A stretch of 64,000 bases of DNA, taken from an uncultured Eubacteriales bacterium. GTDB taxonomy: Bacteria > Bacillota_I > Bacilli_A > RF39 > UBA660. Below, piece after piece: positions 30,811-43,846 of the stretch. Location of the stretch: contig CAUTAF010000007.1 of assembly GCA_963536495.1 (NCBI GenBank), positions 5,803 to 69,802 of the forward strand. The letters run 5' to 3'. The notes under the pieces are model-generated. The model saw only the letters and a program-made list of their open reading frames with translations, was not told where the DNA came from and did no database searches. Made by a program: the position numbers and the translations under genes. Every line of letters starts with the position of its first letter. Positions within the stretch are counted from its first letter, which is position 1.

Positions 30811-33708
30811 ATGAAAAAGAAGTTATTAATTATAGTTTTATTGTTAGTGTTATTAATAACATCTTTTTTTGTCTTAACTAAAAAACCTAATATTAAACAT
30901 AAAAAGTTAAAAGAGTTAAATTATAATCTAACTTATAAACAGGCTTTCCCAGATGAAAATTTAAGAAGAGGTGTACTTTTATGTATCATGAGAAATTATT
31001 GTGCTACATTTTATGAAGGATATTATGAATATAATTATTATAAAAATTATTATTCTGGTGATGGTAGTTTATATGAAACAAAAGAATATGTAAATAAAAA
31101 GTGGTCTTGGACTACTGCAATAACAGAAAGTGAAATAGCAGCAAAAGAAAATGAAACTATTTCAAAAGTAGATTTAGATAAAATCAAATTTTTAATACCT
31201 AATGATAGAAGTAAAGAAATTACTACATTAGAAGGTGTACAATATTTGATAAATCTACAATATGCAATACTAGAAAATGTTAAAGAAGAAAATGTAGATT
31301 TTTCAAATAATAAAGAATTGATTAAGTTATTTTTAAATGGAAAAACTGAAACTAAATCTCAAATAAAAACAATAAATTTAGATCAAAATACTAAATTAAA
31401 AGTTTTGTTTTTAAAGTTAAGTAATAAAAATTTAAATTTATCTAATGTAACAACATTAACAACGTTAGATATAGAAAAAACAATATTAGAAAATATAGTA
31501 TTGCCAAATAGTGTTACAAATTTGGAATTAAGCGATAATAATATAAAAAGTATAAATATACCAACTAGTGCAGTTAAAGTTAATTTAAATAAAAATAAAC
31601 TTAATAATATAGATTTAAGTAATTCTCCAAATTTAGAAGAGTTACATTTACAATATATGAATCTTGATACAATAAATTTAACGAAATTACCAAAATTAAA
31701 AAAATTAGATATAGTATCTTTTAAATCAGATGAAGATATAGATTTTAGTAAAAATGTAAATTTAGAGGAAGTATATATTAATACAAACCGTAGCTACAGA
31801 AATTACCCATTTGGTAATCTTGATTTTAGTAATAATATTAATTTAAAAGAAATATATTTGTTGGCTCCTAAATATAAAACATTAAATATAGAAAAAAATG
31901 TAAATTTAGAAAAAATAACTTTAAGTAATGTGTCAAAAGATGATGTCAAAATGATAGATATAAGAAAATATCCAAAAATAAAACAAGTATTATTAGCGTA
32001 TAATCATTATGATAGAGTTTATGGACCAACTGAATATATAAATGATTTTCAAGGTTTAGATTCCAAAAGAATTAAGGTTAAAAAAAATTCGTATGTTAGA
32101 ATACCGAAAGTATATTTTGATGATAGAGAAGTATATTTGAAAGATAGTCCTAATTTTACAAGAAATGGCGAAATTTATGTTTTTAATAAACTTGGCTACT
32201 TAAATGAAATAGCAATTGGAACAGAAAGGAGTATTCCACCTTTTATTTATCATTATTTTAAGTGGGAATATAATATAGAAGTAGAAGCAGGAGAAGAACA
32301 CGCATTTAATCCAAGTATTGATCAAGGTAACTATACACCTTTAATAAATGAAGAAATACCAGTAAATAACTTAAAAGAAATGATAACTAACTTACCAGAA
32401 AATATTAAGAATTTTGAAGTGTTAAGTCAAAACACATTTACTGATAAAGGGAATAAAACTATTAAGGTAAGAATAACATTTAGTGATGATACATTTAAAG
32501 AAGTAGATATACCTATAAAAGTATATGAAAAAGAAGATATCTTACCAACAGTAACAGTAACTCCAGAAACACTAGAAGTAATAGATAAGAAACCAGTTAA
32601 TATAACTATAACAAGAAGTTATGCTAAAGAAGATAATATCGATAATACTAACTTTATAAAAACAGTAAGAGATAATCTAGTAAGTTATGAATATTTAAAT
32701 AAAGCAAATGGATTAACTTATAATTCAAATAGTGTAACTGGAGTAATAGATTATTTGTTTACTGGTACTGAAGAAGAACATACATTTAATATAACTTATA
32801 AAGAACAAGGTAAAATTTATACATTTAATAAGAATATTTCTATTAAACTTTTAAGAGATACTGATAAAGACGGAATAGCAGATAAAGATGATGATGATAA
32901 AGATGGAGATGGATATTCTAATGCAGTTGAAATAGCAAGAGGAAGTGATCCATATGATAAAACATCTCTTCCTGATATGAGTAAGAAAGATGAGTTAGAT
33001 AATCTTGTTAAACAGTTAGAAAAACTAATAGAAGATACTAAAGTAAATCCGTTTGATACTAAAAATAAACTAGATGTTGATAATCTTAAGAATAACTATT
33101 TACCTGGTAAAGTAACAGAAAAAGATAATATAAAAGGGTCTTATTCTGCAACTACTAGTGATACTGAATTATTAAAACTAATAGAAAAAACTAAAAAAGA
33201 AATAAATGATATCAAAAAAGAAATAAATAAACTAAGAGATAAAGCTAACTTTGAAGAGTTAGATAAAGAAATAAATAAAGAAGTAGATAATTCATATAAA
33301 GAATTAATAGATAAGATAAAAGAAGCTAAAGACTTAGATAGAGATACTTCAACTCAAGAAGAAGTAGATAAGATTACTAAAGAGATAAAAGACTTAAGAG
33401 AAAAGATTGTAACAGATAAAGAAGAACTTAAGAAGAAAATAGAAGAATTAGAACAATCTATTAATGATAAGTTATGTAAGAGTGAGGCATGTAAGACATT
33501 ATTAAAAGAAGCAAAAGATTTATATGATAAAGATTTTATATTAAAAGAAGAAATGTTTAATATGATAAAAAGAATAGATGATTTATTAGATAAAGAGAAA
33601 AGAATAACTAATCCAAAAACTGGAATAAAGACATATAGTTTAGTAATACTATTTATAATATTTATTAGTTATATAGTATTTAAGAAAAAGAAAAGTTATA
33701 TAAGATAA
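30811..33708 (+). CDS. Cell-wall-anchored LRR surface protein, paralog 1 (signal peptide, LRR, Ig-like modules, TSP3-like Ca-binding repeat, coiled coil, NPKTG sortase signal)
   Basis: N-terminus 'MKKKLLIIVLLLVLLITS'. LRR runs such as 'LELSDNNIKSINIP...LNKNKLNNIDLSNSPNLEEL'. 'LLRDTDKDGIADKDDDDKDGDGYSN' (DxDxDG). C-terminus 'NPKTGIKTYSLVILFIIFISYIVFKKKKSYIR'. Confidence 0.7.
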   Translation: MKKKLLIIVLLLVLLITSFFVLTKKPNIKHKKLKELNYNLTYKQAFPDENLRRGVLLCIMRNYCATFYEGYYEYNYYKNYYSGDGSLYETKEYVNKKWSWTTAITESEIAAKENETISKVDLDKIKFLIPNDRSKEITTLEGVQYLINLQYAILENVKEENVDFSNNKELIKLFLNGKTETKSQIKTINLDQNTKLKVLFLKLSNKNLNLSNVTTLTTLDIEKTILENIVLPNSVTNLELSDNNIKSINIPTSAVKVNLNKNKLNNIDLSNSPNLEELHLQYMNLDTINLTKLPKLKKLDIVSFKSDEDIDFSKNVNLEEVYINTNRSYRNYPFGNLDFSNNINLKEIYLLAPKYKTLNIEKNVNLEKITLSNVSKDDVKMIDIRKYPKIKQVLLAYNHYDRVYGPTEYINDFQGLDSKRIKVKKNSYVRIPKVYFDDREVYLKDSPNFTRNGEIYVFNKLGYLNEIAIGTERSIPPFIYHYFKWEYNIEVEAGEEHAFNPSIDQGNYTPLINEEIPVNNLKEMITNLPENIKNFEVLSQNTFTDKGNKTIKVRITFSDDTFKEVDIPIKVYEKEDILPTVTVTPETLEVIDKKPVNITITRSYAKEDNIDNTNFIKTVRDNLVSYEYLNKANGLTYNSNSVTGVIDYLFTGTEEEHTFNITYKEQGKIYTFNKNISIKLLRDTDKDGIADKDDDDKDGDGYSNAVEIARGSDPYDKTSLPDMSKKDELDNLVKQLEKLIEDTKVNPFDTKNKLDVDNLKNNYLPGKVTEKDNIKGSYSATTSDTELLKLIEKTKKEINDIKKEINKLRDKANFEELDKEINKEVDNSYKELIDKIKEAKDLDRDTSTQEEVDKITKEIKDLREKIVTDKEELKKKIEELEQSINDKLCKSEACKTLLKEAKDLYDKDFILKEEMFNMIKRIDDLLDKEKRITNPKTGIKTYSLVILFIIFISYIVFKKKKSYIR

Positions 33709-42900: not shown

Positions 42901-43846
42901 CGTTTTTTATGTAACTTATTATGAAGGAACAAATCCAAAAACATCATTTAAAATTAAACTTTTAAGAGATACAGATTCTGACGGAATCGCAGATAAAGAT
43001 GATGATGATAAAGATGGAGACGGAGTAAGTAATGATGAAGAAACAGCTAATGGAAGTGATCCATATAATAAGAATATAGTACCAGGAATGACTAAAAAAC
43101 AAATACTTGATGTACTTGTTAATGATTTAGAAAAACTAATTAATGATAGTAAAAATAATAATTTTGAAAATAAGAGTAAAATATATGTAGATAATTTTAA
43201 AGAACATATAGCTGAAAAAAACAAAAAATTAAAAGAAATAAAAATATCTTATAATGATACAACATCTGATACAGAATTAGTAAAATTAATTGAAGAAGTT
43301 AAAGAAGAAATAAATAATATAAAAGAAGGAATAAATAATATAGAAGATAAAGCTAATTTTGAAGTTTTAGATAAAGAATTATCCAATATTTTATTAAAAG
43401 AAGATTATTATACTGAAAATATATATGAAGGATATTTGAAATTAATCAAAGAAGCTAAAAATTTATCTAAAGATACTGCAACACAACAAGAAGTAGATTA
43501 TATGGTTTCTTCATTAAATAGAGAAAAAAATATGGTCATTGATGATAAAACTAAATTAAAAGAAAAAATAAAAGAATTAAAAGAACAATTAGATAATGGA
43601 CAATGTCAAGAAGAAGAGTGTAGTTATATAAAAGATAAAATATTATTTTTATATAGTGAAGAAGGTATTTGTGATTCTGTTTCAATAGAAGAATTGATAG
43701 AAATAGTAGAAATATCAAAAGATTTATTTAAAAAGAGTTCACTTAAAAATCCAAAAACTGGTATAAAAACATATAGTTTAATAATTCTATTTATAATATT
43801 AATTAGTTATAAATTAATTAAGAAAAATAAAAATTATATAAGATAA
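39902..43846 (+). CDS. Cell-wall-anchored LRR surface protein, paralog 4 (1314 aa; two TSP3-like repeats; NPKTG)
   Basis: N-terminal 40 aa almost identical to paralog 2. LRRs are present. 'VLRDTDKDGIPDSEDDDVDSDGFSD' and 'LLRDTDSDGIADKDDDDKDGDGVSN'. C-terminus 'NPKTGIKTYSLIILFIILISYKLIKKNKNYIR'. Confidence 0.7.
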   Translation: MKNKKLLIVFVVLLVLITSFLLFILKPNTKNKKLKELNYNITYKQAFPDENLRKSILLCIMRNKCGEEQYNSGAYNFETYRQKHDADFDNKYYFTRTYATDTSLGPVITDDEINTKAEEQISKTDLDKIQVFISNDSYFSHEVTGIEYLTNLKAVVLINLYNYNVDFSYNKNLERVFLGYGSTLSYIKNVNLNQNTKLKEIAINFNFYGRSNKLELDYSILNDLETLIIDSPLEDDYIRLPLGIKILKLKNFDMKRTNLSELVNLKELDVDVFRSGKIDFSKNNKLEKLYLYNEEKNKKIDSLDFSNNPNLKELDINKIGIKNINLDKNINLEKIKFSGNNINELDLSKNINLKDVILSNNNITNIKLNSEKVEKLDLSDNKYLKNINVTRLSNLKYLNLDNTMIKTDTIDFSKNPLLEEVYIKYIPNPSQGYYPADDKSPININSLDFSNNLNLKTLKVKAKLKKLNIERNINLKDLDISINNITDLKAPNHLNYNTSQWIKIKVKKDTDIEIPVNFNGEKLYLNPTSYIIRNGDKYRFTAKGKFEESICSTKNGFNYCLYLNIEVLYKDENIDSSLTLIDQTTEDYRPGINEEIDVNQIRRMITNLPANTKKFEIVEPKPAKFKEKGKNILKVKVTFDDDTSKVYNLPINIYEKIYNSVEFDRKINGEPVNILEKEGKCIFPCGIETFENKEFNYVRHRQYIRTNCNCPGEEFNDTNLLARVNDKVLSYEYIGLPNGLSADENGIHGKIDYKWKENEKEHTFYVVYKEKGHAYNIEETIKIKVLRDTDKDGIPDSEDDDVDSDGFSDVDELKAGSNPYDKNSTPLNVTNVSKNTEADKFNPIIDQKDFKPLTTQTLSKEKVKEMITNLPTDIKSFKVLTTIYDKYTENAKTKITVLITFKDNSKKEFDVPIKFYKEEFIRQIINIEETTSIIEGKTLNLDVKIRYNEEERIDETNLIKYVYEKQKYYYYTSLPQGLKYTSNKISGVIDYKFLGEEEENVFYVTYYEGTNPKTSFKIKLLRDTDSDGIADKDDDDKDGDGVSNDEETANGSDPYNKNIVPGMTKKQILDVLVNDLEKLINDSKNNNFENKSKIYVDNFKEHIAEKNKKLKEIKISYNDTTSDTELVKLIEEVKEEINNIKEGINNIEDKANFEVLDKELSNILLKEDYYTENIYEGYLKLIKEAKNLSKDTATQQEVDYMVSSLNREKNMVIDDKTKLKEKIKELKEQLDNGQCQEEECSYIKDKILFLYSEEGICDSVSIEELIEIVEISKDLFKKSSLKNPKTGIKTYSLIILFIILISYKLIKKNKNYIR

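Follow-up and report, generated by a model that had tools for sequence, protein, structure and literature searches.

A tandem array of probable stalked adhesins with internalin-type heads and a TA-repeat promoter spacer upstream of ftsA

Introduction

InlJ, one of the internalins of Listeria, is an adhesin. Class B sortase substrates include IsdC of Staphylococcus aureus, with the motif NPQTN, and the SrtB substrates of Clostridioides difficile, while repeat-driven phase variation is known mainly from Gram-negative pathogens and mycoplasmas. In Bacillus anthracis, NPKTG is the motif of the SrtB substrate IsdC (PMC11987632). The (TA)n promoter spacer of hifA/hifB in Haemophilus influenzae provides the precedent for a fimbrial switch, and vlp of Mycoplasma hyorhinis has a resembling repeat-spacer promoter layout (PMC3899988). 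Here we describe four consecutive genes, A to D, that lie between a lipid kinase gene and ftsA in a 64-kb stretch of DNA from an uncultured Eubacteriales bacterium (contig CAUTAF010000007.1; hereafter the window). Our favoured reading, to which we give a probability of about 0.6, is that they encode stalked, recombining, probably phase-variable adhesins with internalin-type heads, three of them probably anchored to the cell wall and one, the product of gene C, to the membrane. Coordinates are those of the window; related loci and proteins are cited where needed by L and P numbers.

Four paralogous genes upstream of ftsA

The genes and their immediate flanks, in DNA of about 22% GC throughout the window, are as follows.

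29852-30724, + strand: DagK/YegS-type lipid kinase gene, left flank; the identical protein on other contigs has PF00781 DAGK_cat and PF19279 YegS_C
30723-30760, + strand: terminator hairpin of the kinase gene, 11-bp stem and T-run, fold z -5.2
30811-33708, + strand: gene A, 965 amino acids (aa)
33792-37439, + strand: gene B, 1215 aa
37546-39828, + strand: gene C, 760 aa (longest open reading frame (ORF) 37519-39828, 769 aa)
39902-43846, + strand: gene D, 1314 aa
43922-46212, + strand: ftsA and ftsZ, right flank; L001 orthologs 98.2% and 99.7% identical, with FtsA and Tubulin/FtsZ_C Pfam families

The true start of gene C is almost certainly 37546, giving 760 aa, because a GTGAGG ribosome-binding site precedes it and the upstream ATG falls inside a -10-like element. 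The four proteins matched one another by BLASTP at E values of 1e-89 to 0, with 32–46% identity, and are true paralogs; ORFs, BLASTP and neighbouring genes all agree with the original prediction of four consecutive paralogs of these lengths at this site. Their DNA is most alike at the 5' and 3' ends and, at just 60–86% identity, marks them as old paralogs; recent tandem duplication within the window was rejected for the same reason.

Heads, cassettes and stalk

The domains were assigned as follows.

N-terminal, before the helical cap, + strand: gene A signal or membrane helix
30904-31230, + strand: gene A helical cap
31231-32010, + strand: gene A leucine-rich repeats (LRR)
32011-32289, + strand: gene A Ig-like inter-repeat (IR) domain
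32299-32535, + strand: gene A Rib-like domain
32536-32853, + strand: gene A Ig-like domain after the Rib-like domain
32857-32976, + strand: gene A thrombospondin type 3-like repeat (TSP3)
32977-33600, + strand: gene A three-helix-bundle stalk
33610-33705, + strand: gene A NPKTG, membrane helix and basic tail
35850-35969 and 36552-36671, + strand: TSP3 of gene B, which has cap, LRR, IR, two [Rib-like, Ig-like, TSP3] cassettes and stalk
37341-37436, + strand: gene B NPKTG signal
39727-39825, + strand: end of gene C, a membrane helix and KRRKKERR, after cap, LRR, IR, one Rib-like domain and a short helical region
42263-42382 and 42968-43087, + strand: TSP3 of gene D, which has cap, long LRR, IR, two [Rib-like, Ig-like, TSP3] cassettes and stalk
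43748-43843, + strand: gene D NPKTG signal

In 15 family members the N-terminal block KLKELNYNxTYKxAFPDxNLRxxxxLCIMRNxC shows no or almost no variation, as expected from the near-identical N-domain first noticed in the four paralogs. A profile of 33 family members matched Listeria InlJ (PDB 3bz5) at E 4.2e-39, far above the next LRR protein. An AlphaFold model of residues 28–500 of A (pLDDT 86.7) has a helical cap, a regular short-strand solenoid and a C-terminal beta-sandwich, and its best PDB matches by Foldseek are the internalin domains of InlJ, InlA, InlF, InlB and InlH (E 6e-12 to 1e-6). The core spacing of the LRR is 19–21 residues. Together, the fold (cap, LRR solenoid and fused Ig-like domain) and the sequence relation to InlJ identify an internalin domain; the internalin-type repeats of the original prediction are thus upheld, and structure prediction of the N-domain gives a helical cap joined to them.

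Matches to curated single-domain models were weak. LRR_4 of Pfam scored 15–17 bits against a gathering cutoff of 27, and the NCBIfam model NF033187 internalin_J 30–37 bits against 1700. When each paralog was searched against Pfam, just one model exceeded its cutoff, namely TSP3_bac (PF18884, cutoff 25) in B at 35.8 bits; A (22.1) and D (19.0) fell below and C gave no match. Copies of the motif DxDxDGxxDxxDxDxDxDG number one in A, two in B, none in C and two in D, so that the TSP3-like repeats proposed for all four proteins hold for A, B and D and fail for C. Rib (PF08428, cutoff 27) reached 26.8 bits in D, 22.6 in A, 22.3 in B and 16.4 in C; precomputed Rib matches exist in many homologs, and the region is modelled as a beta-sandwich. 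There is one [Rib-like, Ig-like, TSP3] cassette in A and there are two each in B and D, C having the Rib-like domain only.

The C-terminal helical region, at first taken for a coiled coil, is predicted instead as nine short helices, matching antiparallel three-helix bundles, and is shortened in gene C. Its sequence relatives amount to just 11 cluster representatives among 1.84 billion proteins, and a stalk profile gave no meaningful match among PDB sequences. By sequence comparison, the stalk domain is private to the family.

Relatives with other arrangements were also found. P0122 (2385 aa) lacks an LRR head. It has [Rib-like, Ig-like, TSP3] cassettes repeated many times in tandem, together with the same helical stalk and an end of the NPRTS type. 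A second subfamily (L003 19896-21812; L005 9980-13099; L006 9983-11818; L011 577-3648; L025; L026) shares the N-terminal cap motif, mostly has TSP3 and ends in '...DPKDxSSFKVTKICYKVKG', with neither sorting signal nor membrane helix; its members may be secreted relatives.

A TA-repeat promoter spacer

The most mechanistically informative feature of the array is a (TA) repeat that fills the promoter spacer of gene B.

33735-33771, + strand: gene B promoter cassette, with a -35-like TTGCAT at 33735-33740, (AT)14 at 33741-33768 and TATAAT at 33766-33771
Spacers at the gene B site, flanks identical: L032 13 nt, L033 13 nt, L034 15 nt, window 25 nt
Spacers at the site beside a LytR-type gene, flanks identical: 11, 15 and 19 nt
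Spacers at the site beside addB, flanks identical: 13, 15 and 15 nt

The 25-nt spacer of gene B consists wholly of repeat, and TATAAT sits 20 nt before the ATG. This (AT)14 is the sole (TA)≥6 tract in the window. In 646 kb of fetched sequence we found 17 TTGCAT-(AT)n-TATAAT cassettes, all 17 of which precede family genes; (TA)≥8 tracts likewise number 17 in that sequence, 16 of them inside a cassette and one, in L028, outside. Their spacers range from 9 to 25 nt, with the canonical 17 nt in three and 15 nt the commonest length. Orthologous promoters differ only in n, their flanks being identical. The tract lies between -35 and -10 and varies in length at orthologous promoters, as a repeat spacer should. 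In L017, a (TA)12 cassette stands before the gene D ortholog at the position of the window's extended -10-like element, and where a species has just one family gene upstream of ftsA, the promoter of that gene is ordinary and repeat-free. Because its spacer measures 25 nt against the 17 ± 1 rule, gene B is predicted to be off or weak in the window strain, and the between-strain differences suggest that TA-repeat promoters switch family genes on and off.

In some cassettes the -35 element is tandemly duplicated (CTTGCATCTTGCAT), which provides a second spacing 7 nt longer (L002 9956-10001; L011 5690-5738; L017 832-873 and 9948-9998; L035; L036).

Promoters and terminators of the individual genes

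Further transcription and translation signals are listed below.

30761-30789, + strand: gene A promoter-like TTTAAA-17-TATAAT, with an AGAGG ribosome-binding site at 30802-30806
33702-33733, + strand: gene A terminator, 12-bp stem and T-run, -12 kcal/mol, z -4.8, with the TAA stop (33706-33708) in the stem
33781-33785, + strand: gene B AGAGG ribosome-binding site
37433-37466, + strand: gene B terminator, z -4.75
37501-37528, + strand: gene C promoter-like TTGTCA-16-TATATT with TG extension, and its GTGAGG ribosome-binding site at 37535-37540
39816-39856, + strand: gene C degenerate terminator, weaker, z -2.1
39875-39883, + strand: gene D extended -10-like element TGATATACT, with an AGAGG ribosome-binding site at 39892-39896
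43840-43877, + strand: gene D terminator, 13-bp stem, z -5.2

A near-identical 12–13-bp hairpin (AGATAAAGTTAA...TTAACTTTATCT) with a T-run lies after each of genes A, B and D. The 5' arm of the hairpin contains the stop codon, z scores are -4.8 to -5.2 and none of 200 shuffles folded as well. These hairpins were folded directly, because a terminator scan that required three G-C pairs missed such AT-rich stems. What had been described as an identical terminator overlapping every stop is thus near-identical in three genes, with differing loops, and degenerate in C.

In all four genes a -10-like element ends 17–21 nt before the ATG and is followed by an (A/G)GAGG ribosome-binding site. The upstream region of gene A is nearly identical in L007, L032 and L033, where it precedes a different first gene, and that of gene C is conserved in L001, L009 and L017. 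A consensus promoter scan of 30600-44000 returned 108 sites against 118 expected from shuffles, which is no signal; such a scan is uninformative in AT-rich DNA of 22% GC. The case for a promoter-like region at each gene, as originally proposed, is therefore made by the conserved upstream regions and -10-to-ATG geometry, and gains nothing from the consensus scan.

Surface anchoring

The proteins of genes A, B and D end in NPKTGIKTYSL, with about 17 hydrophobic residues overall after NPKTG, and then a KKxKxYIR basic tail. Motif, hydrophobic helix and basic tail thus form a three-part sorting signal in these three and not in C, which has neither NPxTG nor TSP3 and ends in a membrane helix followed by KRRKKERR. 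The conserved NPKTG end ascribed to all four proteins is accordingly a property of three. As the C orthologs of L001 and L017 share the membrane-helix end, C represents a conserved, membrane-anchored form of the protein rather than a decayed gene.

NPxTG was found in 117 of 120 homologs (85 NPKTG, 31 NPNTG and 1 NPITG), the remaining three being truncated. NPKTG conforms to the SrtB-type pentapeptide NP(Q/K)(T/S)(N/G/S) and is identical to the IsdC motif. Against curated models, the tail of gene A scored 15.0 for TIGR01167 LPXTG_anchor (cutoff 15.9) and 12.2 for NF033846 Rumino_NPXTG (cutoff 23.5), both below cutoff; its match to the IsdC tail was likewise weak and sub-cutoff, and the tails of B and D matched neither TIGR01167 nor NF033846. 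The anatomy of these tails suggests that A, B and D depend on an SrtB-like enzyme.

A conserved 878-aa LRR protein, 98% identical across samples, heads the array beside yqeH (L009 3713-6349; L010 3844-6480; L012 6599-9238; L037 7080-9716). Its C-terminus, with NPSTS, then a hydrophobic helix and then KNKKKKYIS, makes it a second protein type with an NPxT-type signal.

Array content and recombination among relatives

We found more than 500 homologs, nearly all in ENA metagenome assemblies, with one annotated 'putative surface antigen'. The best database match of gene D is 90% identical, so that the window strain itself is absent from that database, and D orthologs are 88–90% identical. Among 185,579 GTDB species representatives, the family occurs in two metagenome-assembled genomes (MAGs; uncultured Eubacteriales and uncultured Clostridiales bacterium). 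By these searches the family is lineage-restricted.

Both MAGs, and five metagenome contigs besides, have just one family gene (951–956 aa) directly upstream of ftsA-ftsZ-mutS; its left flank differs, consisting of transketolase and a 395-aa protein. This lone gene in related species indicates an ancestral site that was expanded in the window, and not, as first supposed, an array inserted so as to displace the region upstream of ftsA.

Gene content at the junction of dagK and ftsA differs between near-identical strains. Core proteins of L001 are 97–99.7% identical to those of the window, and C and D are the only array genes in common; the order before ftsA is a gene of at least 1018 aa, the C ortholog (94%), a 1191-aa gene and the D ortholog (88%), with no counterparts of A and B on the visible part of the contig. 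The extra 1191-aa gene between the C and D orthologs is also present in L017, where it is split into ORFs of 765 and 438 aa (6329-9908), through a pseudogene or assembly error. L032 and L033 have DagK proteins 99.7% and 96.6% identical to that of the window and a first gene of 1078 or 1097 aa in place of A, and then a B ortholog (91.5%). In L007, where DagK is identical, the first gene is of the 1078 type. Additional array loci lie between a LytR/PASTA gene and addBA, and 3' of a yqeH-like GTPase gene, the latter with two genes in some strains and three in others.

Between the window and L001, the ratio of nonsynonymous to synonymous divergence (dN/dS) was 0.42 for D and 0.64 for C, compared with 0.04–0.22 for six flanking genes, and dN of C and D was 3 to 50 times that of flanking genes. 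In one 100-codon LRR window, dN/dS reached 1.18. Several proteins are mosaics. Residues 601–720 of A are 100% identical to those of P0102, whose LRR head differs; P0039 and P0040 have the first ~960 residues in common and different stalks; and P0053, in L009, fuses a gene C-type LRR head to a wall-anchor half. Two paralogs from the same sample, at different loci, have 3' halves with 100% DNA identity over 300 nt and at least 95% over ~900 nt, whereas their LRR regions are just 61% identical, a signature of gene conversion; both contigs are likely to come from one genome. The raised dN/dS, the mosaics and the differing array content agree with the diversifying family of constant ends and variable middles that was proposed at the outset.

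Several assemblies end within these genes. Contigs stop inside the first array gene in L007 (10960-12987) and L008 (6348-6476) and inside the array in L001 (1-3059), evidently because paralogous repeats break short-read assemblies. Five further loci (L023, L027 and L029–L031; BNJS01/BNJT01 contigs of 0.47–0.88 Mb) hold family fragments with constant frame jumps and no ORF longer than ~160 aa. An alternative genetic code was rejected for these loci, as table 4 was as poor as table 11; the pattern is typical of uncorrected long-read assemblies.

Proposed mechanism and alternatives

In the mechanism that we favour, each protein would be exported by way of its N-terminal hydrophobic signal and would display an internalin-type binding head (helical cap, solenoid of 19–21-residue LRR and Ig-like domain) at the end far from the cell. 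The head would be spaced from the cell by a stalk, built of roughly three antiparallel three-helix bundles, together with one or two cassettes of a Rib-like, an Ig-like and a calcium-binding TSP3 module. The sorting signals of A, B and D would most likely be cut by a class-B-like sortase, after the T in an NPKTG-type peptide such as KRITNPKTGIKTY, and linked to peptidoglycan, while the gene C product would stay in the membrane through its C-terminal helix. Every gene would form its own transcription unit of terminator, promoter, ribosome-binding site and gene. In gene B, and in the many family genes elsewhere that have a (TA)n spacer, a slipped-strand change in n would shift the -35/-10 spacing in 2-nt steps and turn single paralogs on or off. 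Recombination within arrays and among at least three array loci would keep the stalk and anchor half similar while LRR heads diverge and re-assort, and strains would consequently differ in the heads that they carry and express.

Several observations weigh against this reading. LRR heads occur in non-adhesin proteins too; adhesion is the function that the internalin relation suggests. No clear AxA site is evident in the hydrophobic segment at the N-terminus; cleavage of the signal peptide is presumed here, and without it the head would be pinned at the membrane. Repeat lengths come from consensus assemblies and their variation is seen between strains only; the commonest spacer is 15 nt, not 17, and on/off control by spacing is an assumption taken from sigma-70/sigma-A rules. 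Overall dN/dS is below 1. The tails of A, B and D missed the curated sorting-signal models, and a search for a sortase gene, which covered the window and ~500 kb of related loci around family genes and thus a fraction of any genome, found none. This search comprised a TLxTC regular expression on ORFs, a broader regular expression, and phmmer on six-frame translations of 560 kb with an approximate S. aureus SrtA sequence as query. Sortase processing is therefore inferred from the anatomy of the sorting signal, and of the original assignment to class B sortase substrates the motif stands and the enzyme is putative.

That all four proteins are simply held by the C-terminal, and perhaps the N-terminal, helix, with NPxTG a mere conserved juxtamembrane motif, would fit the lack of a sortase in the sequences searched, the sub-cutoff anchor models, and gene C and its orthologs, which work with no motif. 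We consider this improbable. The near-universal NPxTG of the homologs keeps a constant spacing to the helix and basic tail, the classic layout of a sorting signal; the motif is the same as one biochemically proven for SrtB; the lineage has the wall-related genes LytR-Cps2A-Psr/PASTA, LtaS and polysaccharide deacetylase; and the limited reach of the sortase search blunts its negative result. A role in phage defence or phage-receptor variation, in which LRR heads act as receptors or decoys and phage pressure drives their diversity, would explain the repeat promoters and differing array content just as well as adhesion does, and fast-evolving, phase-variable surface proteins frequently serve as phage receptors. 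However, a search of 2.9 million viral contigs turned up neither family members nor relatives, none of the loci has prophage or defence genes adjoining the arrays, and the closest structural relatives are the host-binding internalins. This idea, raised as a secondary interpretation in the original prediction, gained no support from these data and seems to us unlikely; an origin of the family in phages was dropped for want of relatives in the viral contigs.

Structural envelope or cohesion proteins of an S-layer-like or aggregating type would need no specific ligand, and their variation would reflect relaxed constraint and paralogy confounded by assembly. The dN/dS below 1 is compatible with such a role, as are the TSP3 repeats, known in cell–cell cohesion proteins (there is a weak match to MtsC), and the cohesin and dockerin proteins close by in related loci. 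We nevertheless give it little credence: a conserved -35 and -10 around a variable repeat, solely at family genes, argues for selected switching, LRR heads stay intact and diverse while gene conversion homogenizes the remainder, and pseudogenes are rare, with one split gene in L017. Each of these three explanations is less supported than that of stalked, phase-variable adhesins. That adhesin reading may extend further, to a contingency system of at least three arrays with gene-by-gene (TA)n switching, gene conversion between loci and an NPxTG class-B-like sortase as general anchoring enzyme. We offer this extension tentatively and at less than even odds; if true, it would amount to combinatorial adhesion or antigenic variation of the Mycoplasma vlp/vsa type in a walled Firmicute.

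Other features of the window

Core Firmicute genes on the + strand of the window include hrcA-grpE-dnaK-dnaJ, asnS, rluB, plsC, the lipid kinase gene, the array, ftsA-ftsZ, mutS, nusA and infB. Rfam returned no family at gathering score in the 64 kb, with no T-box or leader before asnS and no rRNA or tRNA. About 2.8 kb (17799-20582) separates a metallophosphoesterase gene from the trigger factor gene, a distance of just ~156 nt in L007; the additional DNA, which may be the remnant of a mobile element, contains a 258-aa ORF (18667-19443) that matches nothing in Pfam and a minus-strand 161-aa HTH_29/HTH_28 protein (19937-20422). At 49763-51905, the genes next after mutS encode not MutL but a 461-aa HopA1-family protein (Pfam 24.4 bits against a cutoff of 22.7) and a 230-aa protein that matches ankyrin weakly, an arrangement shared with L001. 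At 15008-17207, a T2SSF gene adjoins a 247-aa ORF (16464-17207) that is probably a prepilin peptidase, since the corresponding L007 gene, cut by the locus edge, carries A24_N_bact/Peptidase_A24. Related contigs (L002 34-3440; L009 609-2138) have N_methyl type IV pilin-like genes close to family arrays, and also encode a Dockerin_1 protein and a Cohesin/Cadherin-like one there.

Comparison with known systems

Like the Listeria internalins (InlJ, PDB 3bz5, and InlA), these proteins have a helical cap, a solenoid of ~21-residue LRR and a fused Ig-like inter-repeat domain, and belong to a multigene surface-protein family with a C-terminal sorting signal. Unlike the internalins, with which identity is 15–18%, they have a larger cap, which contains two invariant Cys and a variable insert rich in Tyr, and they score far below cutoff for the curated InlJ and LRR models. 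Internalins are anchored by LPXTG, GW or WxL or are secreted, whereas the anchor here is NPKTG in A, B and D and a plain membrane helix in C. The C-terminal half, with its Rib/Ig/TSP3 cassettes and three-helix-bundle stalk, is unrelated, and the host is an uncultured clostridial lineage of 22% GC. Because every curated internalin, LRR and anchor model was missed at cutoff and the anchor motif is another one, we do not file the family as Listeria-type internalins.

With class B sortase substrates such as B. anthracis IsdC, the proteins share the identical NPKTG pentapeptide, a hydrophobic helix and a basic tail. Unlike the IsdC systems, there are no NEAT or heme proteins, no isd-srtB operon and no sortase gene adjoining any array. 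Use of the motif on a large family and on at least one other LRR protein (NPSTS) is closer to the housekeeping role of SrtB in C. difficile than to the situation in Bacillus and Staphylococcus, where SrtB serves one substrate. As in hifA/hifB with (TA)n, Neisseria meningitidis porA with poly-G and M. hyorhinis vlp with poly-A, a repeat fills the gap between -35 and -10 and its n varies by strain, and as in vlp there are tandem paralogs, each with its own repeat promoter. In contrast to those systems, repeat variation here is known from between-strain length differences alone, the host is an uncultured clostridial bacterium with a cell wall, the tract, which is unidirectional, lies directly 3' of the upstream gene's terminator, and some -35 elements are duplicated. 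The way in which beta-sandwich spacers in tandem and a three-helix-bundle stalk hold out a binding head recalls SraP, Fap1, the Rib/alpha C proteins and Embp/Ebh, from which the family differs in having a stalk with no relatives outside it, no serine-rich repeats and a TSP3 calcium loop that closes each cassette.

These AT-rich uncultured clostridial bacteria, known only from metagenomes, thus invest heavily in a private internalin-like family whose build, anchoring, variation and probable switching can be read from sequence. If the TA-repeat promoters do switch, they would be a clear case of repeat-driven adhesin phase variation in a non-pathogenic, walled Firmicute. NPxTG on a large substrate family would extend housekeeping use of a class-B-type sortase beyond C. 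difficile. Both the (TA)n tracts and the make-up of the arrays could also find use as strain markers. Current concepts are not overturned, and we regard the array as a well-documented variant that holds no new principle. It combines two known kinds of system, sortase-anchored LRR adhesins and phase-variable surface families with simple-repeat promoters; what is new is the domain combination, the private stalk, the lineage restriction and the presence of TA-spacer cassettes in a walled clostridial lineage.

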